The translations under genes were made by a program, and so were the position numbers. This document shows, piece by piece, positions 7,649-59,123 of a stretch of 59,123 nt of DNA. Below the pieces are notes generated by a model that saw nothing but the letters and a program-made list of their open reading frames with translations, ran no database searches and had not been told where the DNA came from. Numbering within the stretch: the stretch's first letter is position 1; the number at the start of each line of letters is the position of its first letter. The DNA comes from an uncultured Candidatus Saccharibacteria bacterium (GTDB taxonomy: Bacteria; Patescibacteriota; Minisyncoccia; Phycocordibacterales; UBA9973), in assembly GCA_964441495.1 (NCBI GenBank), contig CAYTXV010000005.1, positions 1 through 59,123 on the forward strand, in the 5' to 3' direction.

Positions 7649-7656
7649 GTGGGGAC

Positions 7657-7665
7657 AGTATAGCA
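7657..7665 (-). promoter_or_regulatory. Extended -10 box TGCTATACT for dnaE, 8 nt from the ATG
   Basis: The plus strand reads agtatagca. Confidence 0.55.
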
Positions 7666-7680
7666 GTGTGCGCGTCCTCC

Positions 7681-7689
7681 TGTTATATT
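7681..7689 (+). promoter_or_regulatory. Extended -10 box TGtTATATT for rnhB, 8 nt from the ATG
   Basis: Read directly. It is divergent from the dnaE box, which lies 16 nt away. Confidence 0.5.
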
Positions 7690-7697
7690 GACAATAC

Positions 7698-8354: not shown

Positions 8355-8362
8355 AACAAAAA

Positions 8363-8890: not shown

Positions 8891-8900
8891 CTCAAGTATC

Positions 8901-8934
8901 AATGCCCCTCACAAATGTGAAGGGGCATTTTTTA
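8901..8934. terminator. Bidirectional terminator between convergent genes
   Basis: A 12-bp stem with one bulge, aatgcccctcac / gtgaaggggcatt, then ttttta. Confidence 0.75.
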
Positions 8935-9678: not shown

Positions 9679-10367
9679 CGGAGTAACTCGTACGCGCCAA
9701 CGATGGCCGCAGTCTCTGCACGAAGTATCGTTGTGCCAAGTGTTCTAAATTCGACATTATGCGCCTCAAAGAGCAGTATCTCTTCATCGGTCCATCCGCC
9801 TTCTGGTCCGATACAGTACGCGATTGTTTCTTGGTCTTTGTGCGTACGAGGTTTGTGAGGTTGATGAGGGTCAAACACCACAATCGGTGTGCTGCAAGTC
9901 TTGAGGTACTCTGGCAAAGCTATCGGATTATGTATGTGCGGGAGACGGTGTTGTCCTGATTGTTCCACCGCTTCACGTGCGATTGCTTCAAGTCGATCAG
10001 CTCTGAGCGATTGCTTGACAGTACGCGCGCTGATAAGTGGTACTATTTCTCGTACGCCGAGCTCTGTGAGCTTCTGTACAACAAGTTCAAAGAGGTCGCG
10101 CTTGATGATACTCACCGCAGCGATGACGCTACGAGAAGGCGCAGTTAAAGGCGCTCGTCGCTCTTGTACCGATACTGAAACTGATTGTTTAGTACAGCTT
10201 TGTACCTCTACTACGACATCGCCCGATGTTTCATCAAAAACAATACAGGTTTCTCCAGGGGTATAGCGGAGTACAGCAGTGAATTGGTGGACAAGGCTTT
10301 TGTCCATAATCTCAAAAGTTTCTTTGTCCGGGATAGGAGTAAGGAAAAACCGGTGCAGTTTCTTCAT
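9675..10367 (-). CDS. rsmE: 16S rRNA (uracil1498-N3)-methyltransferase RsmE-like
   Basis: MKKLHRFFL N-terminus and a GPEGGWT motif near the C-terminus. A 4-nt overlap with uppP suggests an operon. Confidence 0.8.
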   Translation of the reverse strand: MKKLHRFFLTPIPDKETFEIMDKSLVHQFTAVLRYTPGETCIVFDETSGDVVVEVQSCTKQSVSVSVQERRAPLTAPSRSVIAAVSIIKRDLFELVVQKLTELGVREIVPLISARTVKQSLRADRLEAIAREAVEQSGQHRLPHIHNPIALPEYLKTCSTPIVVFDPHQPHKPRTHKDQETIAYCIGPEGGWTDEEILLFEAHNVEFRTLGTTILRAETAAIVGAYELLR

Positions 10368-33302: not shown

Positions 33303-34334
33303 ATGAAATATTTCACTACACTGTGTCTCATACTTACTGCTTTGTGGACGACGACTGTCTCTGCTGCAGACCTCACCCTTACCGCAAGCGGAGTCACCGG
33401 CAACTCTGTATCTGTCAGCATCAAAAACAATGGACCTGTAGGAGTAAATCCAGATGGTACATACAAGAGTACGTTAACCGGTAGGCTTTATGCGATCAAT
33501 ACAACCTCTGGCAGAGAAGAAAATAGTGTGGATATAGGTGTGGTCGTAGGTGGTGCATCCAAATCTGTAACCATTATCAATCTCAATCCAAATACAGCAT
33601 ACAGTGTTGAGTTTCAAGAAGGAGGAGGCTTTTATAATGCAACACAAGTTATCAAAAAGATAACTATGCGGACAGCGCAGGGAACAGTGATCTGTAGAGC
33701 GCCCAAGATTTTGGTAAATGGTGTATGTGTTGATCCGCCACCAGCTCAGCAGCAAACACAACCTACTCAAACCCCTCCTGTCAATACTCCTGCAATCACT
33801 CCAACAACTCCTGTACAATCAGCATCTACAAGTCCAGATCAGTGTAACGATGGTATCGACAATCAGGTCGGTGACGGCAAGAATTACGGATACGGTATCG
33901 GTGCAGGTGATCGCAAAGCAGATCGGTACGGTGTTGTCGGTATGGAGCCAGATCCGAGCTGTTTTGCAACGTCGGTAAAAGTAGAAAAAGGTGATGATCT
34001 CGCGTACAACTCTGATGGTACTCCAGCAAGTGTTATCCCATGTACAGACAAGTGCACCTTTGGAGATGTGTTTCGACTCCTTAACAACATCATTAGTTTC
34101 TTTTTCAAGGTTATCCTGATACCGTTATTTATCATCATCCTCATCTATGCAGGGGTCAAATACATCACTGCCGAAGGCAATCCTGCCAAGATCGCAAACC
34201 TACGCAAGATACTCTGGAACATCACAAAAGGTATCATCCTCATGCTCTGTTCATGGCTCATCGTACGCACGATCATGACGACGCTTCTGAATGAAGAATT
34301 TAAACAAAGTGGGGTAGAATTCTTGGGAGAGTAA
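33303..34334 (+). CDS. Surface protein: signal peptide + FN3-like domain + Thr/Pro/Gln linker + Cys-containing domain + C-terminal VirB2/TrbC-like pilin module (paralog A)
   Basis: Signal peptide MKYFTTLCLILTALWTTTVSA. The C-terminus reads IPLFIIILIYAGVKYITAEGNPAKIANLRKILWNITKGIILMLCSWLIV. Confidence 0.7.
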   Translation: MKYFTTLCLILTALWTTTVSAADLTLTASGVTGNSVSVSIKNNGPVGVNPDGTYKSTLTGRLYAINTTSGREENSVDIGVVVGGASKSVTIINLNPNTAYSVEFQEGGGFYNATQVIKKITMRTAQGTVICRAPKILVNGVCVDPPPAQQQTQPTQTPPVNTPAITPTTPVQSASTSPDQCNDGIDNQVGDGKNYGYGIGAGDRKADRYGVVGMEPDPSCFATSVKVEKGDDLAYNSDGTPASVIPCTDKCTFGDVFRLLNNIISFFFKVILIPLFIIILIYAGVKYITAEGNPAKIANLRKILWNITKGIILMLCSWLIVRTIMTTLLNEEFKQSGVEFLGE

Positions 34335-34352
34335 CGCTATACTACTGTGAGT

Positions 34353-35477
34353 ATGAAACCATATCTCATCTCTGTGCTTACAATACTTCTTGTGGTGTTG
34401 TCTCCGCAGCGCGCGCTTGCAAACCACTTCAGTTGTACTGCAACAACAACCGAAACAACTGCCACACTCACAGTTCGCACGACGCAACCTGGTATCTTTG
34501 CGACACAATACGTCAAGATAGTCGATGCTGCAAACTCGACAATGGACGGTACGATAGCCCCGTTTGAATCAATCGATCAAACAGCTGATACAAGTGTGTA
34601 TACATACCGATACCTTGATCCTGGCAAAACATACAAAGCAGTCGTATACGACAGAGCAGGCTTATTTGTCGAAGATATCAAAGGGTGTACCTTTACTACC
34701 AAGGGCGGAACTACTACCCCCACACAAACACCAACTACTCCAAATCTCCCGTTTCGTATCAGTATCCAGGACAAGACTGCAACAAGTGCAAAGATAAACG
34801 CACAATCACTCCTGCCGTTTTCGACACTAGGAGAATTCCAGCTTCGTAAATATGTCGGACAAACAGCAAGTGCGCAGACACAGGTCTCCTACTGTACGAG
34901 CAGTACGTTTGCATCTGCAGAAACAGTGCAGTGTATTGTGACTGGGCTTGCACCAGCTACACGATACCTTGTCATTGTGATTGCAAATGGACCAGATAAC
35001 AGACAGTACAGTGCGCCGATGGAGTTCACAACTCTTGCACAAACCAGTACCACTCCTGTTGGTACTGGTACTAACACAGGTAGTCCATCTCCAGGGAGTG
35101 GCAACACAGGTAGTCCATCTCCAGGACAAGATAGTGGTATCCCTATGACGACGACCGGATCTGGTTCTGTCGCAACGACAGCAGGCATCCAGGCAGGAGG
35201 ACTGTTTGAAGTCAAACTCAAAAACCCCCTCAAAGTAAATAACATTTCAGATGCAATCAAGTTTTTCTTGGACGTCCTTATCAAGATCGCGATTCCATTT
35301 ATTGTGATATTCTTTATTTGGTCAGGACTCAAGTTTATCCTTGCGCAAGGTAACCCTACCGAAATCACCAAAGCAAAAAAGATGTTTTGGTATACGATCA
35401 TCGGGACACTCCTCATCCTAGGCGCATGGACGATCACCAATGCGGTTATCGGCACTATCAACTCAATCATCAACTAA
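34353..35477 (+). CDS. Surface protein: signal peptide + two FN3-like domains + Gly/Ser/Pro linker + VirB2/TrbC-like pilin module (paralog B)
   Basis: The C-terminus reads IPFIVIFFIWSGLKFILAQGNPTEITKAKKMFWYTIIGTLLILGAWTI. The track ORF starts at GTG 34347; I prefer ATG 34353, which has TATACT 9 nt upstream. Confidence 0.7.
   Translation: MKPYLISVLTILLVVLSPQRALANHFSCTATTTETTATLTVRTTQPGIFATQYVKIVDAANSTMDGTIAPFESIDQTADTSVYTYRYLDPGKTYKAVVYDRAGLFVEDIKGCTFTTKGGTTTPTQTPTTPNLPFRISIQDKTATSAKINAQSLLPFSTLGEFQLRKYVGQTASAQTQVSYCTSSTFASAETVQCIVTGLAPATRYLVIVIANGPDNRQYSAPMEFTTLAQTSTTPVGTGTNTGSPSPGSGNTGSPSPGQDSGIPMTTTGSGSVATTAGIQAGGLFEVKLKNPLKVNNISDAIKFFLDVLIKIAIPFIVIFFIWSGLKFILAQGNPTEITKAKKMFWYTIIGTLLILGAWTITNAVIGTINSIIN
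35073..35125 (+). repeat. Direct tandem duplication (23-nt perfect core, 30-nt period) inside the paralog B linker
   Basis: aacacaggtagtccatctccagg occurs at 35073-35095 and again at 35103-35125, encoding NTGSPSPG twice. Confidence 0.85.
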
Positions 35478-35478
35478 C

Positions 35479-36144
35479 ATGAACAAACTATCTATAACCA
35501 TTGCGCTCGCACTCCTCTTTTTGATAGCGCCAACCATACATGCAGAAATGATCAAAGAGGGGGATGGTCCAATCCTCGTCGGTGAACAGACGACAATCCC
35601 TGTTTCGACACAAAGTACTCCCACTACAGTACAATTTGACCCTGTGCCAACGATCAACGGTACACCTATAGATATGCAAGTACCTATTGATGATGCTCCG
35701 AGTATGCCAGCCGGTACTCCTGGAGGAGGAGCGCTTCCAACAGGTGCGCTCAACGCCAATAGTCCACAACCACCAGCTGCAAGTAGTACCCCACAGTCAG
35801 GCTCTTCTGAGCTATCTCAGTGTAGCAATCTCAAGATCGTTTCATTGCTCGACTTTTTGATCTGGATCAAATGCATTATTGTGGTTGCGATCATTCCACT
35901 CATCTTTGCACTTGCGCTTATGTTCTTCCTCTGGGGAGTGATGAAGTTCATCATGGCAAATGATTCGACCAAACGAGAAGAGGGGCGCAAGTTTATCCTC
36001 GGCGGACTCATCGGGCTCTTTGTGATGACGAGTCTGTGGGGTATCGTTAGGATACTCGGTACCACGTTGGGACTCGATAGCGCTGTCCCACTTCTCCAGA
36101 CCGAGTGCTTGACCCAAAACGGTTGTACTCCTCCTACCAAGTAG
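35479..36144 (+). CDS. Secreted Pro/Thr-rich protein with a VirB2/TrbC-like pilin module (paralog C)
   Basis: Signal peptide MNKLSITIALALLFLIAPTIHA. The C-terminus reads IPLIFALALMFFLWGVMKFIMANDSTKREEGRKFILGGLIGLFVMTSLWGIV. Confidence 0.65.
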   Translation: MNKLSITIALALLFLIAPTIHAEMIKEGDGPILVGEQTTIPVSTQSTPTTVQFDPVPTINGTPIDMQVPIDDAPSMPAGTPGGGALPTGALNANSPQPPAASSTPQSGSSELSQCSNLKIVSLLDFLIWIKCIIVVAIIPLIFALALMFFLWGVMKFIMANDSTKREEGRKFILGGLIGLFVMTSLWGIVRILGTTLGLDSAVPLLQTECLTQNGCTPPTK

Positions 36145-36199
36145 TGCTATACTTACGACATACCTTATTAATGGTAATAGTTATACAAATAATTTATTT

Positions 36200-36613
36200 A
36201 TGAAAAAATCAGTTCTCGCATCGCTCGGTACGGCACTCATGGCTCCTGCTGTAGCGCTTGCACAGTGGACCGTAACGAGTGGTACACCAAACACAGGATA
36301 CGTTGACACCTGGCTTACAAAAGCAATCGGATGGTTGTCGCAATCGATCACCATCATCATGGTGCTCATGACTGTATGGTTCCTTATCAGTGTGCTTCGA
36401 TATGTCATGGAGAAAGATCCAGGCAAACTCAAAGACAAGCGCAAGACTATGATGTCTGGCCTCCTCGGACTCTTTATCGCAGTGTCAGTATGGGGTATCA
36501 TCCAGATCGCAGGTACTATCTTTGGTACGCGAAATGCAGTAACTCCAGATCTCACCTGTCCTCCAGGAACCGTTGTTGATACAACTGGTAACTGTGGTAT
36601 CCCTGTGCGATAA
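36200..36613 (+). CDS. VirB2/TrbC-like pilin (paralog D, canonical size 137 aa)
   Basis: Signal peptide MKKSVLASLGTALMAPAVALA, then two TM helices flanking the basic loop LRYVMEKDPGKLKDKRKTMMSG. Confidence 0.65.
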   Translation: MKKSVLASLGTALMAPAVALAQWTVTSGTPNTGYVDTWLTKAIGWLSQSITIIMVLMTVWFLISVLRYVMEKDPGKLKDKRKTMMSGLLGLFIAVSVWGIIQIAGTIFGTRNAVTPDLTCPPGTVVDTTGNCGIPVR

Positions 36614-36619
36614 CCATCT

Positions 36620-36955
36620 ATGTCTTGGATCGCATATGCTGACTCTGTAGATACTCTTGTGTTCAAGATAAACGCAAAGGTTATCAACCCCGCGATTGAG
36701 TTTGCGTTCATCATCGCACTTGTTGTATTCCTTTTTGGTGTCATGGAGTACATCCGTGGTGCTGCAAACGAAGACAAGCGCAAAAAGGGGAGAGAGCACA
36801 TGCTCTGGGGTGTCGTCGGGTTTGTCATCATGCTCGGTGTGTTTGGGATCATCACATTTCTCACGCGCACATTTGGTATCCAGGGTGCAACCTTCACCAA
36901 GGATCAACAAACGTTTACTCCGCCACCTATCCAAGACCTCAAATTTCCGCAATAA
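36620..36955 (+). CDS. VirB2/TrbC-like pilin (paralog E, 111 aa)
   Basis: A two-helix module, FIIALVVFLFGVMEYIRGAANEDKRKKGREHMLWGVVGFVIMLGVFGII. Confidence 0.6.
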   Translation: MSWIAYADSVDTLVFKINAKVINPAIEFAFIIALVVFLFGVMEYIRGAANEDKRKKGREHMLWGVVGFVIMLGVFGIITFLTRTFGIQGATFTKDQQTFTPPPIQDLKFPQ

Positions 36956-41905: not shown

Positions 41906-42379
41906 TTAACTCAATGATTTTTTTGCTTCGGATAATGCAGTAGTTTCTTCGGTAGTGAGACTTACTTCGGGGATGCCACGATTTATTTTCTTGGCGTAGA
42001 CGCCGACATGGTTGCGATGCGTGATGACCGAGAGGATATACCCGTCACCGTGCTCGTCGAGGAGACCTGAAGCGAAGCTCTGCTCTCCACCAGCACTCTC
42101 GTATGCGTCGTAGCGCACGAGTGAGTATCCGCGGATACTTCGTTTGACTCGTGCGTCGATGTGCTCAAGTCCTTCTTTGTGTGCCTCGAGTGTTTCGTCT
42201 GTTGCAGCTGCCTTGTGCGTCAGCCAGGCAAGTGTGGACTCAAGTGATGCTCCATCTTTGCCAGCCATGAACGAGCGTAGTGTTTGTCGAAGGTTACGTA
42301 CGACTATGAAAAGTGCAACCACCAGTATAAACAATATGATGAGCGCTATGGCGATGCTTGGTGGTATACTGCCTGTCAT
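41906..42379 (-). CDS. DUF4446-like membrane-anchored protein
   Basis: N-terminal TM helix, then the pattern VRYDAY....G.QSFA.A.LD..G.G as I recall it for DUF4446. Confidence 0.6.
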   Translation of the reverse strand: MTGSIPPSIAIALIILFILVVALFIVVRNLRQTLRSFMAGKDGASLESTLAWLTHKAAATDETLEAHKEGLEHIDARVKRSIRGYSLVRYDAYESAGGEQSFASGLLDEHGDGYILSVITHRNHVGVYAKKINRGIPEVSLTTEETTALSEAKKSLS

Positions 42380-42387
42380 AAGACCAC

Positions 42388-42395
42388 ATTATACT
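42388..42395. promoter_or_regulatory. Overlapping divergent -10 boxes (TATAAT minus / TATACT plus)
   Basis: Plus-strand attatact. TATAAT lies 8 nt from ATG 42379 (minus) and TATACT 9 nt from ATG 42405 (plus). Confidence 0.5.
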
Positions 42396-42404
42396 GAATT
42401 TTTT

Positions 42405-43577
42405 ATGTTTTTCAAGCGCCGTCGCACATACCTCGACTATGCATCAGCAACACCGATCGATCAGCGGATGATGCGATCGTGTGCGCGTATCGACCCAGTA
42501 GTACCTGGCGCTAACCCGCACGCGCTTCATCGTGAAGGTGTGGCAGCGAGATCGGTGCTTGAACGTGCTCGCACGCACGTGGCGCGCACTATCGGCGCAC
42601 ATCCGGATGAAATACTCTTTGTCAGTGGTGCGACAGAGAGCGACAACCTCGCGCTACTCGGTTCTATATATAGCGCGATAGAAGAAGGTGTTGATCCTGC
42701 ACGTATCACACTTATCACAAGCGACCTTGAGCATGCTGCTGTGGCAGAAGTTGCTTCTCGTACTGCCGGTATCAATACGATCACTATCCCTAGTACTGAT
42801 GGCGTGATTGATCCATCGCACATCATAGTGCCAGAGGATTGTCTGGTTGCGATAGTCTCTATCATGTATGTGAACAACGAGATCGGTACCGTGCAACCGA
42901 TCAAATCAATCGCAAAGCGTGTACGGTTCTTGCGCAAACAGTACCCTCAGATGAAGATTGTCTTTCACACTGACGCAACACAGGCACCAGTACACTTTGG
43001 GCTCAGTGTCCCGCAGCTCGGTGTCGACATGATGACGCTCGGCGCAACCAAGCTCTACACACACAAAGGTGTCGGCGTGCTCTATAAAAAGAGAAGCATC
43101 ACACTTGTGCCGATCATGTATGGCGGCGGACAAGAGGAAGGGTTACGTCCTGGCACCGAGTCAATCGAACTTGCGCACAGCTTCGCGCACGCACTCGCAT
43201 ATGCAGTGCAGATGCGAGAGGTAGAAACCGCGCGTATCGCACAGCTACAAAACTATTTTGAAAGTACACTCAAAGCACTACTACCAGATGTACGTATCAC
43301 GGCAGAGGATCAAGAGCGCACTCCACATATCACCCATGTTGCGATCAAAGACTTTGATTCAGAGCTCCTCGTGATCGAACTTGATGCCCGTGGTATCGCA
43401 GTATCTGCAAAGTCGGCTTGCAAAAATGAGGACAGCAATGAGTCTGCGATTGTTGAGAAGTTGTATGGCAAAGGCTGGGGAGCAGTACGGTTTTCGTTTG
43501 GGAGGATGACCAAGAAAGGTGACATCGATCGCGCAGTCAAAGCGCTTCAAAAGGTGGTGGGGAAGTATAAAAAATAA
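42405..43577 (+). CDS. Cysteine desulfurase (class V aminotransferase, NifS/IscS-like)
   Basis: YLDYASATP, SGATESDNLAL, HTDATQA, and the active-site region SAKSAC. The start is the internal ATG of ORF 42144..43577. Confidence 0.85.
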   Translation: MFFKRRRTYLDYASATPIDQRMMRSCARIDPVVPGANPHALHREGVAARSVLERARTHVARTIGAHPDEILFVSGATESDNLALLGSIYSAIEEGVDPARITLITSDLEHAAVAEVASRTAGINTITIPSTDGVIDPSHIIVPEDCLVAIVSIMYVNNEIGTVQPIKSIAKRVRFLRKQYPQMKIVFHTDATQAPVHFGLSVPQLGVDMMTLGATKLYTHKGVGVLYKKRSITLVPIMYGGGQEEGLRPGTESIELAHSFAHALAYAVQMREVETARIAQLQNYFESTLKALLPDVRITAEDQERTPHITHVAIKDFDSELLVIELDARGIAVSAKSACKNEDSNESAIVEKLYGKGWGAVRFSFGRMTKKGDIDRAVKALQKVVGKYKK

Positions 43578-47155: not shown

Positions 47156-50100
47156 ATGATTTTCTTGAAGAAAAAGAAACTATATTTTTTTGCGGGATTT
47201 ATTTGTGCTTTGGTTTTAATCTCTATTTCAAAAGCTCATGCATATACATATGATTTTGAAACAGATACCGTAGGGCAAACACCGTCAGGGGTTACGGTTA
47301 CCGCAGGAACTTTTACTGTCTCAAATGACGCGACATCAAACAATAGTAACGCAATGCGTTCGACTTCGACTACTTCGACTCCTGTACTTACTTTTAACAA
47401 TTTTTCCTCAGCAAGTAATTATTCTGTTACATGGAAAGATATGTATTCAAACAACACAGGGCGTTACGGATTTGTTTTGAGGGCACAAAGCGGTACTACT
47501 TCATCGATTGCGGGTATGCAGCAAGGGTATATATTTCGGGTTGATCACGAAGGTACAAGTACTCCCAATACTGTTCGAATATATAAAAATGGAGCTTCTG
47601 CTTCAACACAACTAACCTCAGTCAGTCTGACAAGTGCTACAAATCGATGGTTTAAGGCAATTGTGTATGATACAGAACTCAAGTTGTATTATTCAAACAA
47701 CGGAGTTGATTTTACACTAATCACAAGTACTTCAGACAACTCGTATACTACCGGAGGAGTCCAGTACGCATCAGGTTTTAGTGGTAGTAGTAACGGTGGT
47801 CGATTTACATACATTGATAATATTACTCAGGAAGATATCGAACATCAAGATCCACCCATCATATCAAATATAGTAGTCTCTGGGACAGAAACTACTGGGG
47901 CAACAATCACGTGGACTACTGATGAACTTTCCACATCTCAAGTGGTGTATGGTACAACCTCGGCATATGGATCAACTACCGTCCTTGATACAACACTGAC
48001 AACTTCACATTCAGTTACTTTGTCCGGATTGACAACCAATACGGTCTATCACTTTGCGGTCAAGAGTGCTGATGAGTTAAGCAATGAATCCACTTCTCGT
48101 GACGGAACGTTTAACACGGGTACGCCGGTCAACAATATCGCTGTTACTACTCCGAGTGCATACGAAGTATTTCAGCGTAATGGTTCAAATCAGGCCAATA
48201 TCACTATTGTTGGTACATATACAGGTACTCCAACTGCTATAGAGGCGAGTTGGAATGGAGGTGCGTATACAACAATTGAATCAAATCCAACAGGGGGTTC
48301 ATTTTCAGGCACGCTTTCTAATCAGACGGGGGGTCAGGGGACGCTTACTGTTAGATTTGTAAATAGTACAGGTACCTCAGCGAGTATTTCATATGTTGGT
48401 GTCGGCGATGTATATGTTATAGCTGGACAAAGTAATGCAAGTGGTAAGGGGACAAATAATCAATCTTATTCACATCCGACACTCAAGGCAGGGTTGTTTG
48501 GTAATGATGATGTATGGAAAAACCTTACCGATCCTGTTGACTCAAACTCTGGACAGGTTGATTCTGTAAGTAGTGATACAGGAGCCGGAGGTTCTGTATG
48601 GCCACTTCTTGCCACATATATACTCAATGATCAGGGTGTACCTGTTGCATTTATACCCGCACCAAAAGGGGGAACATCGATTACTCAATGGGATCAGGGA
48701 TTATTAGCATCGACATTGTACGGGTCAATGTATCGACGCATCAACGAAGTTACCGGTGGTATAAAAGCAGTGCTTTATTTCCAAGGAGAAACCGACGCAA
48801 GCAATTCAATGAGTACTGCAACCTACCTTTCATATCTCAATGCGCTTGCCAACAATATCAACAGTGACTTCGGTGTAAAAACAGTAGTTGGTATGATAGG
48901 TAACGCTTCATATACCGCTACACAGCTCGACAATATTCGTCTTGCACAAATCTCTGGGTGGAACACAAATGCAAATATAATTCCAGGGCCAAATGTTGTA
49001 GACGTAAATCTTGCTGATGAGAGTGGGGATAATCTGCACTTCAAGAGTGATGCAGATCTTGCAGTTTTTGCTGCTCGATGGTGGGCGGCTCTCAAGGCGG
49101 GGTTTTATAGTGGGACGGATGATGGACGCGGCCCACGTATCAGTGGTGCAACATACAATACTGCAAAAACAGAACTTACGCTTACTTTTACTGATACATC
49201 TGGTCTTGCAAATACTGCCGTGGGTCCAGAAGTGTTCACTGTCAAAGATAATGGAACCCCTGTTAGTGTATCTACAGTTACACGACTTAACTCATCACAA
49301 CTAAAACTTACACTTGCATCTGCGGCAACTGGTACTATTACTGTTACGCTTGCCTCTGGTATAACAGGATACAGTGGAGCAATGCCTACCGATGCGAGTG
49401 CGTATACAATCCCAGCAGAGCCGTTTGTTGATTACGCAACAACACTTTATGATCCAGACATCACCGCCCCAACCGTTTCGATCACCGCCCCAACTGATGG
49501 CGCAACTGTGAGTGGTGCTTCAGTCACCGTTTCTGCAAATGCCTCAGACAATAGTGGTGTTGTGGGAGTACAGTTTAAACTCGATGGTGCAAACCTTGGA
49601 TCTGAAGATACTACAGCACCGTATTCGATAGTGTGGGATACGACAGTTGCGACAAACGGTACTCATACCATTACTGCAGTAGCTCGAGACGCTGCAGCAA
49701 ACACTACTACAGCAACCACAATTACGGTGACGGTTGATAATCGTGCACCTATAGTATCAGTCGCTGATTCGTCTGTCGCACTTGCTGCGGGGACCACAGG
49801 TACATCACTTTCAGTTACAACAGACGAATCAAGTACTTGTAAATATGCTACCGTAGCAGGTACCGCATACTCTTCTATGACAGAAACATTTAGTACAATA
49901 AATGGACTTGCACATACTGCTCCAGTGACTGGTTTTACGAACGGTACCACCTATACATACTATATTCGTTGTGTAGACGCTGTTGGTAATGTCACAACAG
50001 AAGATACAACTGTTTCTTTTGTAGTAGCAAACCCTACACCAGAACCAGAACCTGAAAATTCTGAACCAGAACAAGCATCATCTACTGTGTACGGTTCAAT

Positions 50101-50449
50101 CTCTACGGTACGCCGCGCAGTTTCGACAGATACTCGTGCCTGTACACCAACCACGAACTTTAGCCCAGTTACGGGAGCAAAATGTCCAAAACATATAGTT
50201 ACGAACAATAATTTTTTAACAAACCTGCGGATAGGTATGAACCATCCTGATGTCAAAAGATTACAACAATACCTCAACACACACGGTTTTATAGTAGCAA
50301 CTAGTGGTCCCGGATCTCTTGGTAAAGAAACAACTTATTTTGGTTCAGCAACAAGAACCGCCATTGTTCGATTGCAAAAAACATATAATATCTCGCCAGT
50401 AAGTGGTATATTCGGTCCCAAAACCCGTGCGTTACTACATAATTTTTAA
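47156..50449 (+). CDS. 1097-aa multidomain surface protein: LamG/ConA-like + FN3 + SASA-type (sialate O-acetylesterase/CE6-like) esterase + Ig-like domains + PG_binding_1
   Basis: A signal/anchor segment, then FN3 (ATITWTTDELSTSQVVYG...YHFAV) and SASA motifs (VIAGQSNASGKG ... GDNLHF). An Ig-like domain follows (APTVSITAPTDGATVSG...TAPYSIVWDT). The C-terminus is a peptidoglycan-binding repeat (GMNHPDVKRLQQYLN...GIFGPKTRALL). Confidence 0.8.
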   Translation: MIFLKKKKLYFFAGFICALVLISISKAHAYTYDFETDTVGQTPSGVTVTAGTFTVSNDATSNNSNAMRSTSTTSTPVLTFNNFSSASNYSVTWKDMYSNNTGRYGFVLRAQSGTTSSIAGMQQGYIFRVDHEGTSTPNTVRIYKNGASASTQLTSVSLTSATNRWFKAIVYDTELKLYYSNNGVDFTLITSTSDNSYTTGGVQYASGFSGSSNGGRFTYIDNITQEDIEHQDPPIISNIVVSGTETTGATITWTTDELSTSQVVYGTTSAYGSTTVLDTTLTTSHSVTLSGLTTNTVYHFAVKSADELSNESTSRDGTFNTGTPVNNIAVTTPSAYEVFQRNGSNQANITIVGTYTGTPTAIEASWNGGAYTTIESNPTGGSFSGTLSNQTGGQGTLTVRFVNSTGTSASISYVGVGDVYVIAGQSNASGKGTNNQSYSHPTLKAGLFGNDDVWKNLTDPVDSNSGQVDSVSSDTGAGGSVWPLLATYILNDQGVPVAFIPAPKGGTSITQWDQGLLASTLYGSMYRRINEVTGGIKAVLYFQGETDASNSMSTATYLSYLNALANNINSDFGVKTVVGMIGNASYTATQLDNIRLAQISGWNTNANIIPGPNVVDVNLADESGDNLHFKSDADLAVFAARWWAALKAGFYSGTDDGRGPRISGATYNTAKTELTLTFTDTSGLANTAVGPEVFTVKDNGTPVSVSTVTRLNSSQLKLTLASAATGTITVTLASGITGYSGAMPTDASAYTIPAEPFVDYATTLYDPDITAPTVSITAPTDGATVSGASVTVSANASDNSGVVGVQFKLDGANLGSEDTTAPYSIVWDTTVATNGTHTITAVARDAAANTTTATTITVTVDNRAPIVSVADSSVALAAGTTGTSLSVTTDESSTCKYATVAGTAYSSMTETFSTINGLAHTAPVTGFTNGTTYTYYIRCVDAVGNVTTEDTTVSFVVANPTPEPEPENSEPEQASSTVYGSISTVRRAVSTDTRACTPTTNFSPVTGAKCPKHIVTNNNFLTNLRIGMNHPDVKRLQQYLNTHGFIVATSGPGSLGKETTYFGSATRTAIVRLQKTYNISPVSGIFGPKTRALLHNF

Positions 50450-53738: not shown

Positions 53739-53770
53739 AAGCACCCATAAATGGGTGCTTTATCTTTTCT
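53739..53770 (+). terminator. Terminator hairpin
   Basis: aagcaccca / taaa / tgggtgctt followed by tatcttttct. Confidence 0.6.
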
Positions 53771-53798
53771 TGAGCTCGGTATAGTACACTACAGCAAC

Positions 53799-55466
53799 AT
53801 GAGACAAGCTCAGGCACTCGACATCCTCAAAACAGGCGCGCACGTCTTTCTCACTGGAGAGCCAGGTGCTGGCAAGACACATACCGTCAATGCATATGTG
53901 GCGTACCTCCGTGAGCACGGGATCGAGCCTGCCATCACTGCCTCTACTGGTATCGCCGCGACACATATCCATGGACAGACCATCCACTCGTGGAGCGGGA
54001 TAGGGATCCGTCGGTTTCTTTCTCCGTACGATCTCGAGCAGCTCGCAACGACAGAATATCTTGTCAAACGCATTAGGCGTACAACGACACTGATCATCGA
54101 TGAGGTTTCGATGATCGATGCAACGACACTTGATATGGTCGATGTGGTATGTCAAACGATTCGTGGTTCCACGGAACCGTTTGGTGGGATACAGGTTGTA
54201 CTTGTTGGTGACTTTTTCCAGCTTCCACCTGTTGCGCGTTCTGGTGACGAGGGTAGATTTGCATTTACATCACAGGCGTGGCGTGCGATGCGTCCAGTTG
54301 TCTGTTATCTCACTGAGCAGCATCGTCAACAAGATGAACGGTTTCTCTCGGTACTTGGAGCTATTCGCACAGATACATATGATGAAGCGCATCATGACCA
54401 TCTCGCCAAGTGTTTTATTTCTTCTGATACTAACGAGTCACTCACGATCACGCGTTTGTTCCCACACAATGTTGATGTTGACGAGATCAACAATCGTGAA
54501 CTTGCGAGGCTCGACGGTGTCCCGCAAACATACACGATGACAAGCAAGGGAAGAGAGTCACTTGTCGCTGGACTCAAAAAGGGTTGCCTTTCTCCAGAAG
54601 TACTCGTGCTCAAAGAGGGTGCGATTGTCATGTGTACCAAAAACAATCCACAAAAAGGCTATGTCAACGGCACGCTTGGGACAGTACTCGGATTTGAAGC
54701 CGGGACCAAGTATCCGATCATTGAAACCAGGGATGGACAGCGGATCACCATCGAAGCGGTTGACTGGGTGCTCGAAGAGGACGGTAAACAAAAAGCGTCT
54801 ATTACGCAGATACCACTGCGACTTGCATGGGCGATCACTATCCACAAGAGTCAAGGGATGAGTCTCGATGCTGCGGTGATGGACCTCAGAGAAGTGTTTG
54901 AGTACGGGCAAGGGTATGTTGCACTCTCTCGAGTTCGTTCACTCGAGGGACTCAAACTCCTCGGTATCAACAGGCGAGCAGTTGAGGTGCACCCACAGAT
55001 TCGCGCCCAAGATAGTGCCTTTGTACAACAGTCAGATATAGCAGAGGTTTCATTTGGCGACATCCCCAAAGACGAGCTTCGATCGATGCATGAGCGATTC
55101 ATCCTTGCTTCAGGTGGTGTGGTGACCAAGGCAAAAAAGCAAGTCAAACTAGATACACTTGAACACACGCTCATGCTTGTTCTCCAAGCAAAACCGATTG
55201 CAGTTATTGCCAGAGAGCGTAAACTGACACAAGCAACAGTTTATACGCATATCGAAAAGCTAATTGCACAAGGGCGACTTGCCTACGAAGACATCGCGTA
55301 TCTCATCACAGACAAGATTCGTAAAGGGTATCGCGAGATCAAGCGAGCATTTCAAACAGCAGATACATCCAAGCTTGCACCAATCCATGAACTATACAAG
55401 GGTAGATATACGTTTGACGAGTTACGGATTGCGCGGATGATGATGGTACTTGAGACAAACGAATAA
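53799..55466 (+). CDS. PIF1/RecD-family (TraA-like) ATP-dependent DNA helicase with a C-terminal HTH
   Basis: Walker A GEPGAGKTH, motif II IIDEVSMID, VGDFFQLPPV, AITIHKSQGMS and YVALSRV. The C-terminal HTH-like segment reads ARERKLTQATVYTHIEKLI. The start is the internal ATG of ORF 53751..55466. Confidence 0.85.
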   Translation: MRQAQALDILKTGAHVFLTGEPGAGKTHTVNAYVAYLREHGIEPAITASTGIAATHIHGQTIHSWSGIGIRRFLSPYDLEQLATTEYLVKRIRRTTTLIIDEVSMIDATTLDMVDVVCQTIRGSTEPFGGIQVVLVGDFFQLPPVARSGDEGRFAFTSQAWRAMRPVVCYLTEQHRQQDERFLSVLGAIRTDTYDEAHHDHLAKCFISSDTNESLTITRLFPHNVDVDEINNRELARLDGVPQTYTMTSKGRESLVAGLKKGCLSPEVLVLKEGAIVMCTKNNPQKGYVNGTLGTVLGFEAGTKYPIIETRDGQRITIEAVDWVLEEDGKQKASITQIPLRLAWAITIHKSQGMSLDAAVMDLREVFEYGQGYVALSRVRSLEGLKLLGINRRAVEVHPQIRAQDSAFVQQSDIAEVSFGDIPKDELRSMHERFILASGGVVTKAKKQVKLDTLEHTLMLVLQAKPIAVIARERKLTQATVYTHIEKLIAQGRLAYEDIAYLITDKIRKGYREIKRAFQTADTSKLAPIHELYKGRYTFDELRIARMMMVLETNE

Positions 55467-55484
55467 TCGATTTATACTAACGAC

Positions 55485-55547
55485 ATGGCAAAAGGAAATA
55501 ATTCACGCAAAAAAGAAACCAAAAAACCAAAGAAGGTAGCAAAATAA
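55485..55547 (+). CDS. Unannotated lysine-rich 20-aa micro-protein (MAKGNNSRKKETKKPKKVAK)
   Basis: I read it by hand. A TATACT box at 55473-55478 lies 6 nt upstream of the ATG, and a 14-bp perfect hairpin follows at 55553-55584. Confidence 0.35.
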   Translation: MAKGNNSRKKETKKPKKVAK

Positions 55548-55552
55548 TGTGT

Positions 55553-55584
55553 GCAAATCCCACCACATCCGTGGTGGGATTTGC
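55553..55584 (+). terminator. 14-bp perfect hairpin (terminator-like, no long T-run)
   Basis: gcaaatcccaccac / atcc / gtggtgggatttgc. The 3' arm overlaps the TGC of the next -10 box. Confidence 0.55.
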
Positions 55585-55590
55585 TATACT
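55582..55590 (+). promoter_or_regulatory. Extended -10 box TGCTATACT, 10 nt from ATG 55601
   Basis: Read directly from the sequence. Confidence 0.55.
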
Positions 55591-55600
55591 ATAACTATCT

Positions 55601-57526
55601 ATGGTTCCGTATGATCCTGAACACATCACGTACTTTGCAGAAACTGACGCTCGTGGTCAGCGTGTAAAGTTTGGCATCAAGAGTCGTGATCGTACTCGTC
55701 ATATGTACGTGATCGGTAAAAGCGGTGTTGGTAAATCCACTCTTCTTGAAAACATGGCGATCCAAGACATAGCGCACGGTGAGGGTGTTGCGGTTCTCGA
55801 CCCACACGGAAGCTTCGCTGAAAAGATGCTTGAGTATATCCCGCAAGAGCGCATCAAAGACGTCGTATACTTTGCTCCGTTTGATACCGACAACCCGATC
55901 TCGTTCAATGTGCTCGAAGACGTCGGGCATGACAAACGCCACTTGGTTGCAAGTGGACTCATGTCGTCGTTCAAAAAGATCTGGGTAGATGCGTGGAGTG
56001 CGCGTATGGAGTACATCCTCAACAACATCCTCCTTGCGCTCCTCGAGTACCCCGATGCGACACTCCTTGGAGTCAACCGCATGCTCTCAGACAAGGTGTA
56101 CCGCAACAAAGTTGTGGAGAACCTCACTGATCCTTCAGTCAAATCTTTCTGGACTGACGAGTTTGCAAAGTACGGCGAGCGCTATATGCAAGAAGCCGGT
56201 GCTGCAATCCAAAACAAAATCGGTCAGTTTACTGCCAATCCGCTTGTACGTAACATCATCGGGCAACCCAAGAGTACGTTTGATATCCGCAAAGTGATGG
56301 ATGAGCAAAAGATCCTCATCATCAACCTTTCCAAGGGTCGCATCGGTGAGCAGAACACGTCACTTCTTGGTTCAATGATTATCACCAAGATTTATCTTGG
56401 TGCAATGAGTCGCGCAGAAGTTTCTTCGAGTCGCATGGGAGGACTTGCAAACTTTTATTTCTATGTCGACGAGTTCCAGTCGTTTGCAAACGAAACGTTT
56501 GCAGATATCCTCGCAGAGGCACGCAAGTACCGACTTGCGCTCATCATCGCACACCAGTACGTCGCACAGATGGAAGACAAAGTCCGGGACGCAGTGTTTG
56601 GTAACGTCGGTACAACGATATCATTTCGGGTGGGTCCGCTCGATGCAGAGCTTTTGGAAAAGGTATTTGCGCCACAGTTTAGTGCCAACGATATCATCAA
56701 CCTTGGTATGGCAGAGATCTATCTCACGCTCATGATCAACGATATCGGTTCGCAGCCGTTCTCTGCACGGACGCTGCCGCCGCTTCAACGACCTACGATA
56801 ACCTTTAGAAACGATGCGATTGAATGGTCTCGCAAGGCATATGCCGCACCCAAAGAAGATGTGGAGAAAAATATCCGCGAGTGGTACGCAGATGGTGCTG
56901 ATGAACTCAAGGCGCTTGATGAGCAAGCAAAAAACAAAAAGAAAATCACATTTGCAGACACACCTCGTACAACTGCAACTGCTCCTGCGCAAGGATTTGT
57001 CAAAAAGCCATTTACTCCTCGTGAAAAGTCTGGTGATATCGAGACACACAAGCCGTTTGCAAAGTCATTTACCAAACCGCTCGCTCGACCATTTGCGAAT
57101 ACTCAATCTGAGCAGATAGCTGTCACTGACAAAGAAAGTGTTGTACATACACATGAGGTTACCGTCAAAACCTCCCCAGAACTCAAATCACTCCTTGATG
57201 CGATCGATGGGAGCCCAACAACAGACGTGCGCGTACAAGAACCTCCAAACAAAGAGGCGCCATTTGTCGGAGAGAAACCTCTTCGTGAGACAGTACTTCC
57301 GGTCAAGCACGCAGAGCGAGGTCCTACAGAAAAAAACAAAGATCTCTTGCGTGCAGCACTTCAGCAAGCTATCAAAGACACCTCTAAACCATCCACTACC
57401 TCTACTGAGGCACCACCGGTTGCTACTGGTACAGGAGTTTCTGGTAGTGATATTACACATAAGCAAGTGTCTCCGAATACTGCAGAAATTCTTCCCGAAG
57501 ATCTGCAAAAAGTATTGGAGCAATGA
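55601..57526 (+). CDS. TraD/VirD4/TraG-type (T4SS coupling-protein-like) P-loop ATPase, soluble, with a long disordered C-terminal tail
   Basis: Walker A GKSGVGKST, Walker B-like FYFYVDEFQSF, and EARKYRLALIIAHQYVAQM (TraG-D_C-type motif). There is no N-terminal TM helix. The last 220 aa or so are low-complexity. Confidence 0.75.
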   Translation: MVPYDPEHITYFAETDARGQRVKFGIKSRDRTRHMYVIGKSGVGKSTLLENMAIQDIAHGEGVAVLDPHGSFAEKMLEYIPQERIKDVVYFAPFDTDNPISFNVLEDVGHDKRHLVASGLMSSFKKIWVDAWSARMEYILNNILLALLEYPDATLLGVNRMLSDKVYRNKVVENLTDPSVKSFWTDEFAKYGERYMQEAGAAIQNKIGQFTANPLVRNIIGQPKSTFDIRKVMDEQKILIINLSKGRIGEQNTSLLGSMIITKIYLGAMSRAEVSSSRMGGLANFYFYVDEFQSFANETFADILAEARKYRLALIIAHQYVAQMEDKVRDAVFGNVGTTISFRVGPLDAELLEKVFAPQFSANDIINLGMAEIYLTLMINDIGSQPFSARTLPPLQRPTITFRNDAIEWSRKAYAAPKEDVEKNIREWYADGADELKALDEQAKNKKKITFADTPRTTATAPAQGFVKKPFTPREKSGDIETHKPFAKSFTKPLARPFANTQSEQIAVTDKESVVHTHEVTVKTSPELKSLLDAIDGSPTTDVRVQEPPNKEAPFVGEKPLRETVLPVKHAERGPTEKNKDLLRAALQQAIKDTSKPSTTSTEAPPVATGTGVSGSDITHKQVSPNTAEILPEDLQKVLEQ

Positions 57527-58824
57527 AACAATGGTTCGGGGTAGTTGTTGCGGTGCTGCTGAGCGCATCACGTGTGTATGCTGATGTGCAGATTACTGAA
57601 ATCGCATGGATGGGAACGAGTGCAAGTCAGTACTCAGAATGGTTTGAACTCTACAATGATGCAGCCGAGTCAGTAAACCTTGCAGGATGGAAACTTGTCC
57701 AGGGTGATGGCTCGGTTATATTTACCATGACCAAATCAATCGGTGGAGGAGAGTACCTCCTCGTTGAGCGAACGACCGCATCTGCCCCTGATGCTGTTCC
57801 AGGTATCGATGATGAGTCAGGTCCATTTGGTGCGAGCGGGTTTGCAAACACCGGTGAAGATCTTGTACTCAAAGATGCAAGTGGTACGGCGGTACAAACG
57901 CTCAGCTATGCATCGGGATGGCCTGCAGGGGATGCAAGTACAAAACAAACGATGCAGTGGGACGGAAGTAGTTGGATAACTGCTGATCCGACACCCAAAG
58001 CAGCTACAGACGGTAGTGGTATGTCTTCGAACGAAACTGATGTAGCACAAAAAGACGAAGAAAAAGATCCATACCCGATCCCTCCAACATCTCCCAACAA
58101 ACCGCACATCGAGTTTACGATACCTAAACCGATCTACGTCGGTGTCCCATATGAGTACAAAGCTCGTCCAGTGTTTGAGTACAACTATACGCTTACTGAA
58201 GGGGATTTCACTTGGAACATGGGTGAGGGGACTATCTATACACAGCGCACATATGCCCCACTCATGCATACATATCGGTACCCTGGCACGTACACGATAT
58301 CGTTTCGTTACCGCGATCCAGCCAAATCAGAGATTACACTCGTTGGTTCACAAAAAGTGAGTGTCGTTGCGCCAACGATTGCACTTTCGCTCAAAGATAG
58401 TCGAGCCGTCGAACTCAAAAACACTGCTTCTACTGCGGTTGATATATCAGGGTGGATGCTTCGTGGTGTGGGATACAACATCACGATCCCTGACATGACA
58501 GTACTCGCAGAGCGCGCGACGATCACGATACCGCTTGGAGGATTTGGTGTGTCGTATGCAACGAGCGCATCGTTGGTAGATCCGTCCGGCACTGTCGTTG
58601 CAACAACAGCGCCGGCTATGGTGGCACAGACAACAACCTTGCCAGTTGTACTAGATGATACCGTTGTTCCTGAATACGAAGCGCCGATACCTCGCACAGA
58701 TACTCCGATACGAAAACACACCAAAGTGATTATCTTTGGTGTGATCGCGTTATTTGTTATCGGTTTGTCGATACTCCTCGAGCGGTTTATGGCCCGACAG
58801 GAGTACCAACAGGAGAAGGGGTGA
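57523..58824 (+). CDS. Secreted lamin-tail-domain (LTD) + PKD-like + second LTD-like protein with a C-terminal TM anchor
   Basis: A signal peptide, then LTD (ITEIAWMGT...SEWFELYN...NLAGWKL...GEDLVLKD) and a PKD-like segment (FTWNMGEGT...YRYPGTYTISF). A C-terminal TM helix follows (VIIFGVIALFVIGLSILL). The start overlaps the upstream stop (ATGA). Confidence 0.75.
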   Translation: MKQWFGVVVAVLLSASRVYADVQITEIAWMGTSASQYSEWFELYNDAAESVNLAGWKLVQGDGSVIFTMTKSIGGGEYLLVERTTASAPDAVPGIDDESGPFGASGFANTGEDLVLKDASGTAVQTLSYASGWPAGDASTKQTMQWDGSSWITADPTPKAATDGSGMSSNETDVAQKDEEKDPYPIPPTSPNKPHIEFTIPKPIYVGVPYEYKARPVFEYNYTLTEGDFTWNMGEGTIYTQRTYAPLMHTYRYPGTYTISFRYRDPAKSEITLVGSQKVSVVAPTIALSLKDSRAVELKNTASTAVDISGWMLRGVGYNITIPDMTVLAERATITIPLGGFGVSYATSASLVDPSGTVVATTAPAMVAQTTTLPVVLDDTVVPEYEAPIPRTDTPIRKHTKVIIFGVIALFVIGLSILLERFMARQEYQQEKG

Positions 58825-59123
58825 TGAGGGTTGTATCAGGGGTTGTTGTAGTTGCATCGACGCTTGAAGCGATCGCATCGATCTCTTTTGAGATGATCTT
58901 TACTTCCTGGTCAGCAACTTTTTGGAGTGTACCGTTGAGTGCCTGGAGCGCACCTTCTTTTGCTGCAGTATCGGTTGTAGCGTTTTCGATGAGTACCTTG
59001 CTTTCGTTAAGGGTATCTTCGAGGTTTGCTGTTGCAGTGAGCGCAACGTTTGGCGCAACAGAGTCGAGGTTTACCGAAAGGTCTTTGATGTGTTCATCGA
59101 GCGCTTTTTGTACGGTTGCTTGT
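58787..59123 (-). CDS. 3' part of a minus-strand gene running off the window (coiled-coil/Thr-Pro tail, unknown function)
   Basis: By hand translation the frame is open from the window end to TAA at 58787-58789 (…KEIDAIASSVDATTTTPDTTLITPSPVGTPVGP*). It overlaps the LTD gene 3' end by 38 nt. Confidence 0.35.
   Translation of the reverse strand, partial: QATVQKALDEHIKDLSVNLDSVAPNVALTATANLEDTLNESKVLIENATTDTAAKEGALQALNGTLQKVADQEVKIISKEIDAIASSVDATTTTPDTTLITPSPVGTPVGP

Follow-up and report, generated by a model that had tools for sequence, protein, structure and literature searches.

A predicted anchorless coupling-protein ATPase and a lamin-tail surface protein are frequently encoded side by side in Patescibacteria

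Introduction

What does a motor ATPase of the kind that serves type IV secretion systems (T4SSs) do on an ordinary bacterial chromosome, in direct overlap with the gene for a surface protein? The question is raised by a 59,123-nt stretch of DNA from an uncultured Candidatus Saccharibacteria bacterium (assembly GCA_964441495.1, contig CAYTXV010000005.1, positions 1 to 59,123 of the forward strand), referred to here as the window. Near its 3' end two plus-strand genes overlap. The first (55601-57526) encodes a P-loop ATPase of 641 amino acids (aa) that appears to derive from type IV coupling proteins (T4CPs) of the VirD4/TrwB kind, and the second (57523-58824) encodes a bitopic surface protein of 433 aa in which two lamin-tail domains (LTDs) flank a PKD-like domain; we call it the LTD protein. 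A first-pass annotation of the window had read these genes, together with a helicase gene and a very small open reading frame (ORF) upstream of them, as a DNA import or export device. All four ORFs, their motifs and the overlap that it described are present, at or very near the positions it assigned to them. We find that, in what is a genome of the Paceibacteria/Nomurabacteria type, the ATPase and LTD genes make up a two-gene chromosomal unit in which pairing is frequent and non-obligate either way.

Patescibacteria account for a large share of bacterial diversity and are apparently host-dependent, and theirs is the sole T4SS shown to be essential for the growth of its owner (Ca. Southlakia epibionticum). 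Almost all of its members have T4CP homologues (2,918 of 3,035 genomes), yet these stand apart from T4SS genes: 148 of the 5,713 genes lie near virB4 (Quinonero-Coronel et al. 2025, PMC12102498). The authors of that census raised the possible exaptation of these proteins and found relaxases to be rare. The remoteness of the window ATPase gene from other T4SS genes, already pointed out in the first-pass annotation, agrees with these counts.

Results

A predicted coupling-protein motor without a membrane anchor

The ATPase was assigned to its class by sequence and profile evidence (Pfam, hhalign and BLASTP). It scores above the gathering cutoffs of PF10412 TrwB_AAD_bind (42.4 bits, cutoff 20.5), PF02534 T4SS-DNA_transf (33.2, cutoff 20.1), PF01935 DUF87 (28.9, cutoff 23.2) and PF12696 TraG-D_C (24.2). 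The cutoffs of the named NCBIfam T4CP equivalogs (CD1115, TraD and others) are not reached: the best of these models, NF045973, requires 250 bits and gives 44.7, and the TraD families require 366-648 and give 27-43. The Walker A motif GKSGVGKST (residues 39-47, 55715-55741) is invariant in 34 homologues and aligns to the P-loop of TrwB. Invariant columns in the same homologues also cover Walker B, FYFYVDEF (residues 285-292; VDEFQSF occupies 289-295), and the RKYRLALIIAHQY motif (308-320), which together span 56453-56560 and align to 'LWLFIDEL...RKAGLRVVAGLQS' of TrwB. TrwB is the sole significant sequence match in the PDB (E = 0.002), and querying the PDB with a profile made from the ATPase alignment returned nothing beyond it. 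Using hhalign, a plasmid protein that contains the Walker A stretch of TrwB (PDB 1e9r) at 100% was matched with 91% probability over query residues 29-325 (263 columns). The alignment runs unbroken from Walker A through the region of the all-alpha domain and past Walker B. An insert of all-alpha size occupies about residues 106-258, with helix predicted at 121-236 in a low-confidence model; the column confidence of both hhalign and Pfam is low there.

Using BLASTP, the closest identifiable relatives outside the Patescibacteria with a known context appear to be a conjugative T4CP of Embleya (31% identity, E = 4e-61; window residues 15-408 against its residues 405-794 of 812) and a pLS20-like T4CP of Bacillus subtilis (30% identity, E = 7e-36). 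Because residues 15-408 align with the C-terminal motor of these two proteins, the ATPase would correspond to a T4CP motor minus an N-terminal region of 350-400 residues, and its ancestry probably lies among the T4CPs that serve conjugation systems of the Gram-positive type. No hydrophobic segment of 19 residues was detected in the window ATPase, nor in any of 79 family members out of 81, the remaining pair being ORF-calling artefacts, and the window protein starts 14 residues before the motor-domain homology. Judged from sequence, it is a VirD4/TrwB-type T4CP motor domain without a membrane anchor, much as the first-pass annotation had described it (TraD/VirD4-like, with no transmembrane (TM) anchor).

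Behind the motor lies a tail of variable length (residues 411-641, 56831-57523) in which K, T, A, P and E abound. It had been described as a disordered stretch of about 220 aa; its size, roughly 230 aa, and its low complexity bear this out, and the part that does not hold is uniform disorder, since three short helices are conserved within it (residues 526-535, 577-591 and 632-640; 57176-57205, 57329-57373 and 57494-57520). Their columns are invariant, and their helical state comes from an AlphaFold2 model of low confidence (mean pLDDT 46, built from a 34-sequence alignment that is shallow and too similar). At the other end of the gene (55580-55603), the start is not preceded by a Shine-Dalgarno motif, and a TATACT/TATAAC sequence resembling a -10 element, not called by a promoter scan, ends about 10 nt before it. 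The ATPase mRNA may therefore be leaderless or nearly so.

The ATPase is a conserved chromosomal gene

The ATPase family comprises more than 8,000 protein clusters, with at least 584 species-level genome matches at a core identity of 68-96%. Across 34 homologues that are 66-87% identical, roughly two in three residues of the core do not vary, and homologues in Paceibacteria, Nomurabacteria and Minisyncoccia are annotated as 'type IV secretion system DNA-binding domain-containing protein'. The ATPase has become a vertically inherited, very strongly conserved chromosomal core gene. An origin from a mobile element within the phylum was considered and rejected: the single match in IMG/VR belongs to host DNA that borders an integrase junction.

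A soluble, near-universal and very highly conserved chromosomal ATPase might instead be a housekeeping DNA translocase that clears or segregates the chromosome at division, functionally akin to SftA, a soluble FtsK-family protein of Bacillus subtilis. A division role would explain the status of a core gene near cell-wall genes, and neighbours of the ATPase in relatives include MurD, a peptidoglycan transpeptidase/carboxypeptidase and CofD/YvcK. T4CPs and FtsK also belong to one ATPase superfamily (PMC7434980). The profile evidence points elsewhere: neither FtsK_SpoIIIE (PF01580) nor the FtsK gamma domain is among the 15 Pfam hits of the ATPase at E <= 0.1, the best matches are all to T4CP families, and the DUF87/HerA match (PF01935, 28.9 bits) is weaker than those to the T4CP families. 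No NurA-like neighbour was found in any ATPase locus examined. FtsK is mentioned in papers on a Saccharibacterium, which would leave no obvious gap to fill, and the T4CP homologue of S. epibionticum is non-essential (PMC12102498). We consider a housekeeping translocase of this kind highly improbable, and replacement of FtsK by the ATPase is unlikely.

The partner gene encodes a bitopic surface protein with an acidic ectodomain

The product of 57523-58824 begins with a signal peptide (residues 1-20, from the AlphaFold2 model), followed by a first LTD (LTD1; residues 21-158, 57583-57996) and an acidic linker. The PKD-like domain (residues 194-283, 58102-58371; Pfam PKD, 24.9 bits) adjoins a second LTD-like beta-domain (residues 284-362, 58372-58608), and a stalk leads from there to a TM helix (residues 402-419, 58726-58779, by hydropathy) and a cytoplasmic stub, ERFMARQEYQQEKG (residues 420-433), that is conserved in the family alignment. 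Pfam LTD (PF00932) matches in two stretches with 77 bits (cutoff 34.3). The AlphaFold2 model, with a mean pLDDT of 81, contains the signal peptide, three beta-sandwich domains, the stalk and a long C-terminal TM helix, so that the earlier description of a secreted LTD-PKD-LTD protein with a C-terminal TM anchor is upheld by both Pfam and the model. Foldseek matches are to Ig-like and PKD folds (collagenase PKD domains at a target-normalised TM-score of about 0.7-0.8, phage Hoc and GhpA repeats), with no enzyme fold among them. The family is large: 2,611 representatives were found at E <= 1e-30, and more than 100 of the top 150 have the full-length architecture.

LTDs had been taken as a sign of DNA handling, and there is some ground for this. 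They are found on extracellular nucleases and on metallo-beta-lactamase-type membrane hydrolases (PMC6085458, citing Mans et al. 2004), and deletion of the LTD lowers the activity of the ExeM nuclease in vitro (PMC6085458). One source labels a homologue of the LTD protein 'competence protein ComEA', a label that is single and unsupported. Pfam and NCBIfam searches of the LTD protein detected no nuclease domain (EEP, OB-fold) and no ComEC domain (Competence, metallo-beta-lactamase), and the NCBIfam ExeM match is weak and confined to the LTD part (E = 0.002). LTD1 is the most conserved part of the protein and is strongly acidic in all 37 homologues, with a median net charge of -12 and a pI of 4.1, the opposite of a typical DNA-binding surface. 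The remaining ectodomain is neutral to acidic, and its linkers are Ser/Thr/Pro-rich. The acidic ectodomain therefore argues against a simple ComEA-like electrostatic DNA receptor, though DNA might be bound through metal bridges. On the cytoplasmic side, the TM helix and the stub (LLERFMA.QE) are conserved in the family and the adjacent stalk is not; the conserved stub therefore hints at a specific intracellular contact.

The two genes are tightly joined and often paired

In the window, the stop of the ATPase gene and the start of the LTD gene share the sequence ATGA (57523-57526, plus strand), and a GGAG at 57517-57520 lies 2 nt ahead of the LTD-gene ATG. The first-pass annotation read this overlap as translational coupling of the two genes, and we agree. 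We compared this junction across relatives, using a simple in-house ORF caller and gene clusters built over 80 species-level loci; the samples of 80 loci consist of top matches to the query and are non-random. In 39 related loci the median gap between the two genes is 4 bp, and it is at most 10 bp in 85%, resembling a sigma/anti-sigma pair. Flanking junctions have median gaps of 20-66 bp (LTD to a family 4 glycosyltransferase, GT4, 22; ATPase to GT4, 30; upstream junctions, 20-66). The ATPase-LTD junction is among the tightest in the block and not the most frequent.

Pairing was counted in the 78 ATPase-centred loci with enough sequence and in 36 full-length LTD-centred metagenome loci; neighbourhoods of ATPase-centred loci extend 6 kb, and presence of the LTD gene was judged within about 5 kb. 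The LTD gene is directly 3' of the ATPase gene in 44 of the 78 and, counted from the other side, the ATPase gene is directly 5' of the LTD gene in 22 of the 36. For no fewer than 50 of the 120 LTD homologues listed, the longest contig is of the same size as that of a listed ATPase homologue. Mapped on the ATPase tree, presence of the LTD gene requires 7 parsimony changes, against a mean of 25.8 (minimum 18) when shuffled, with 'present' as the root state, and the pairing looks ancestral. The pair has been kept as a unit in at least three genomic contexts, some of them without the glycosyltransferase block (the window clade and locus L087 included). Lack of conservation of this adjacency in related genomes was to have refuted the first-pass annotation; the adjacency extends well beyond close relatives, and on this count the annotation stands. 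In a locus from IMG/VR (L083, IMGVR_UViG_3300009666_001272), the usual LTD slot directly 3' of the ATPase gene is taken up by a serine recombinase together with an N6/N4 DNA methylase (6982-10290), which suggests that an integrative element was inserted at, or replaced, the LTD position.

The conserved neighbourhood is one of cell-envelope biosynthesis

The same loci supply evidence against a functional partnership of the two proteins in secretion. Genes of distant relatives are arranged as RsmI, a small protein with two TM segments, DUF4015, variably an L,D-transpeptidase/S11 carboxypeptidase or MurD, the ATPase, the LTD protein, runs of GT4 and CofD/YvcK, which is a neighbourhood of cell-envelope biosynthesis rather than secretion. 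The LTD count has a counterpart: 34 of the 78 ATPase loci are without the LTD gene, with GT4 directly next in 21, and 13 of the 36 LTD loci are without the ATPase gene, with unrelated genes upstream and GT4/GT2 often still downstream. One LTD gene without an ATPase (L088) lies inside a glycosylation cluster, GT4-GT4-CofD-LTD-GtrA-GT2-PMT_2, and another (L089) in a sigma-factor context. The column entropy of the ATPase core is 0.66 both with and without an LTD neighbour, with no fixed or nearly fixed differences, and relaxed constraint after loss of the partner was rejected on this basis. Tail motifs that track the LTD partner were likewise rejected, as the three tail helices are kept whether or not the LTD gene is there. 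A substitute anchor gene was also sought: no small membrane protein follows the ATPase in loci without the LTD gene.

These observations are what one would expect if the two genes simply share an inherited order, both being old members of an envelope block. The LTD protein would then be a (glyco)protein of the surface or cell wall with a functional link to the glycosyltransferases, and the ATPase would act independently of it. The LTD gene heads GT4/GT2 runs in 6 of the 14 LTD loci without a directly adjacent ATPase, its product has an acidic ectodomain with Ser/Thr/Pro-rich linkers, and other junctions of the block are at least as frequent (small two-TM protein to DUF4015, 85%; transpeptidase to ATPase, 85%). 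What inherited order accounts for less well is a junction much tighter (4 bp, ATGA) than its neighbours, a pair that travels together into contexts free of glycosyltransferases, and a conserved cytoplasmic stub that suggests a specific intracellular contact. We regard inherited order as a possible explanation, if an unlikely one.

Further points bear on the link to secretion itself. No relaxase, VirB4, VirB6 or channel gene was found within 6 kb in 80 ATPase-centred loci, nor any relaxase, VirB4 or channel gene in two other ATPase loci whose neighbours are listed by Pfam family. We can only infer the link of the ATPase to a T4SS, because no T4SS core gene lies within 6 kb of it or in the 59-kb window. 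In Ca. Southlakia epibionticum the T4CP homologue is non-essential, with other T4SS genes essential (PMC12102498). This, too, counts against a role in secretion.

The window is chromosomal and holds a pilin array

The genes of the window are those of an ordinary chromosome: SecA, DnaE, pyruvate kinase, HisRS and ClpB, along with a GyrA-like gene and one for an IF-2-like GTPase, the last two assigned from their translations. A housekeeping identity was assigned to every ORF longer than about 470 aa except 42144-43577. As the first-pass annotation had reported, the window contains no relaxase and no VirB4; a second ATPase of the FtsK/HerA type was not found in it either, phmmer with the ATPase against window proteins gave the self-match only, and tblastn detected no GT4, DUF4015, MurD, RsmI or CofD homologue.

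The VirB2-like pilin array reported upstream is indeed present, as five consecutive plus-strand genes (33303-36955) with a C-terminal T4SS_pilin domain (PF18895), three of them above the 26.6-bit cutoff (29.5, 36.5 and 26.7) and two below (21.7 and 23.3). Its 3' end is 18.6 kb from the ATPase gene. In published data, pilin genes lie near virB4 in 1,135 of the 1,948 assemblies that have both. The first three pilin genes have long N-terminal regions, one with a weak fibronectin-III-like match. Another large surface protein is encoded a few kb upstream of the ATPase-LTD unit (47156-50449, plus strand); it is secreted, measures 1,097 aa and joins a SASA-type carbohydrate esterase to Big_7 Ig domains and, at the C-terminus, a domain that binds peptidoglycan.

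Downstream, the unit is bounded by a convergent DUF5667-like gene (58787-59122, minus strand; assigned by gene cluster), whose 3' part is in the window, the window ending inside the gene, and whose 3' end overlaps that of the LTD gene. In the window clade (L001-L013, L081, L082 and L089), the LTD gene is always followed by convergent DUF5667 (anti-sigma-like) and a paired ECF sigma factor, with the same overlap of 3' ends, a neighbourhood that L089 retains with the ATPase absent.

The helicase and the micro-ORF are neighbours only

The helicase gene (53799-55466, plus strand) lies in an ORF of 53751-55466, and a start at 53799 (MRQAQALDILKTG...) agrees with the N-termini of homologues. It had been labelled as of PIF1/RecD/TraA type with a helix-turn-helix domain. 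The Pif1 family and the C-terminal HTH_40 hold: the product is an SF1B helicase matching PF05970 PIF1 at 114 bits and Pif1_2B_dom at 30.9 bits, and it aligns to human PIF1 structures (PDB 6hph) over residues 18-417 with E = 6e-72. The TraA part does not, as NCBIfam TraA_Ti gives 47 bits against a cutoff of 590 and there is no relaxase domain. The helicase gene adjoins the ATPase gene in 4 of 80 loci, all close relatives, and even there one or two ORFs lie between them. In two further loci, found via LTD homologues, it is three to five genes upstream, among DoxX, PMSR, SpoU, GluRS and ClpB. The proximity of helicase and ATPase is ordinary chromosomal synteny.

Between the two lies a Lys-rich micro-ORF of 20 codons (55485-55547, plus strand) that encodes MAKGNNSRKKETKKPKKVAK. 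Its frame is kept at 20-21 codons in five related loci (L001 5086-5148, L002 656-718, L003 1545-1610, L004 5029-5091 and L006 5102-5164), with the consensus M[AG]KG[ND][ND]..KKKPKK.., and in L003 it is present with the helicase absent. A promoter-like site (TTGAGA-17-TATACT, 55450-55478, plus strand; 10 of 12 positions matched) lies ahead of it, and a hairpin, CCCACCAC-ATCC-GTGGTGGG (55559-55578, plus strand), lies 3' of it, with a weak T-run and uncalled by a terminator scan. The micro-peptide matched nothing in Pfam or NCBIfam even at E = 10. A resemblance of its N-terminus to ribosomal protein bTHX was considered and is unsupported by any search result. The micro-ORF is an independent conserved small gene, neither a chance ORF nor part of the ATPase unit. 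The slot between micro-ORF and ATPase gene is empty in the window (55548-55600); in close relatives it carries a basic protein of 220-245 aa (L001 5234-5947, L002 817-1476, L003 4895-5590, L004 5199-5933 and L006 5259-5921). Identity to the L001 protein is only 14-27% for the other copies; 'GWV.I' is a motif common to them all, none matches a Pfam family, and the position looks like a fast-evolving or replaceable gene slot.

With the helicase and the micro-ORF removed from the unit, the proposal that LTDs capture extracellular DNA while ATPase and helicase pump and unwind it can be assessed. What remains for it in the locus is the ancestry of the ATPase in DNA-conjugation coupling proteins. 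Patescibacteria also lack nucleotide synthesis, and ComEC is non-essential in S. epibionticum, so that another uptake route has been postulated (PMC12102498). Set against this are an ordinary Pif1 helicase that is rarely adjacent, an independent micro-ORF whose hairpin parts the helicase unit from the ATPase, cell-envelope neighbours and an acidic ectodomain. Moreover, neither the unit nor the genes conserved around it include a channel protein, a relaxase, a nuclease or a ComEC/ComEA domain. We judge a device for the import or export of DNA to be very unlikely.

Discussion

The arrangement that we favour is a peripheral T4CP motor that feeds a T4SS encoded elsewhere, with the LTD protein as adhesin or anchor; taken as a whole, we give this statement an even chance of being right. 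The ATPase would be a peripheral, probably hexameric motor at the cytoplasmic membrane, which recruits substrates or supplies energy. It would most plausibly serve the relaxase-less chromosomal T4SS of Patescibacteria, of which the window contains only the pilin array; anchorless T4CPs, TraJ of pIP501 among them, would be its parallel. The LTD protein, made together with the motor, could be a surface adhesin or an anchor that places or regulates it at the site of cell contact. Protein would be at least as likely a substrate as DNA.

A bolder version of the peripheral-motor arrangement, which we consider quite unlikely, treats the ATPase and the LTD protein as a split coupling protein. The LTD-PKD-LTD ectodomain would sense or bind the host surface and recruit or activate the motor through the TM helix and stub, so that host contact would gate delivery by the T4SS. 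In addition, the LTD protein would serve as a surface adhesin; a PrgB-type adhesin was undetected in the census of Patescibacteria (PMC12102498). If true, a contact-gated coupling module would be a new way of linking events outside the cell to a cytoplasmic secretion motor. If not, the analysis still removes a tempting and unsupported annotation of the locus as a 'DNA uptake machine'.

It is already published that T4CPs of Patescibacteria lie far from virB4, that VirB2-like pilin arrays occur and that some T4CPs lack a transmembrane domain (TMD). In the literature searched, we found no description of a clade-wide anchorless state, of the tail motifs, of the cell-envelope neighbourhood or of an LTD-PKD-LTD partner. 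The same holds for the pairing: the word 'lamin' is absent from PMC12102498, and no searchable paper joins 'lamin tail' with 'Patescibacteria'. To the picture of nearly universal T4CPs, the present analysis adds a large, conserved clade that is predicted to be anchorless, that appears to have been co-encoded anciently, and often, with a bitopic surface protein, and that lies in a cell-envelope neighbourhood. It also offers a candidate partner and conserved candidate docking motifs.

Comparison with known systems

The T4CPs of pLS20-like (Bacillus) and actinobacterial (Embleya/Streptomyces) plasmids are 30-31% identical to the window ATPase across the motor, and in them, too, Walker A is followed by the insert, Walker B and TraG-D_C. 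Unlike it, the Embleya and Bacillus proteins are 812-913 aa long and have an extra N-terminal region of 350-400 aa, in which one TM segment was detected in Embleya and none in the Bacillus protein. Their neighbours are also of a kind not seen at the window: a replication-relaxation protein, PrgI, a VirB4-like ATP-binding protein and NlpC/P60 in Embleya, and a replication-relaxation protein, TcpD, TcpE and an ATP-binding protein in Bacillus. The Bacillus subtilis protein of 913 aa (L086 5948-8686, plasmid NZ_OX419581.1) is also without a hydrophobic TM-like segment, so that the example of pIP501 may understate how common anchorless T4CPs are in Gram-positive systems. Our search of 72,556 plasmids gave 704 records matching the ATPase, of which three matches were examined in context. 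The best match overall is a soluble, tail-less protein of 395 aa from Sulfitobacter mediterraneus (L084 6989-8176, NZ_CP081110.1; 40% identity, E = 5e-86), which is much closer to the core of the window ATPase than any Gram-positive T4CP. The plasmid that encodes it is alphaproteobacterial and non-mobilizable, and the genes nearby include transposases and a recombinase and none for conjugation. The protein may reflect horizontal transfer of the anchorless form.

Compared with TrwB of R388 (PDB 1E9R), the P-loop, Walker B and 'RK...Q' motifs align, and the sequence similarity is remote (PDB E = 0.002). TrwB differs by its N-terminal TMD, which measures about 70 aa and without which DNA is not transferred (PMC7434980); its gene adjoins that of a MOBF relaxase. 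On the side of the LTD protein, ExeM of Shewanella is likewise a membrane-associated protein with a secreted N-terminal lamin-tail domain (PMC6085458). ExeM carries OB-fold and EEP nuclease domains, whereas the window protein is without any catalytic domain.

Within the phylum, the window ATPase is the same kind of chromosomal protein as the T4CPs counted in PMC12102498. That census consists of counts, and the missing TMD, the tail motifs, the cell-envelope neighbourhood and the LTD partner are unmentioned there. The T4SS cluster of S. epibionticum is without a recognisable coupling protein (PMC10633639), and the T4SS of Patescibacteria is reported to have its origin in MPF_FATA, a lineage of monoderm conjugation systems (PMC12102498).

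T4CPs without a TMD are a recognised subfamily whose partners are small membrane proteins; for TraJ of pIP501, TraI has been proposed as the membrane anchor (PMC7434980, PMC12857230). Like TraJ, which belongs to a Gram-positive MPF_FATA plasmid, the window ATPase would be a soluble T4CP motor, a likeness that is one of description. TraJ and TraI belong to a conjugation operon that also encodes a relaxase and VirB4, whereas the window locus is chromosomal and has no tra genes. The partners differ in kind as well: TraI is a small protein with two TM segments and no large ectodomain, whereas the candidate partner in the window is a bitopic protein of 433 aa with three extracellular beta-sandwich domains.

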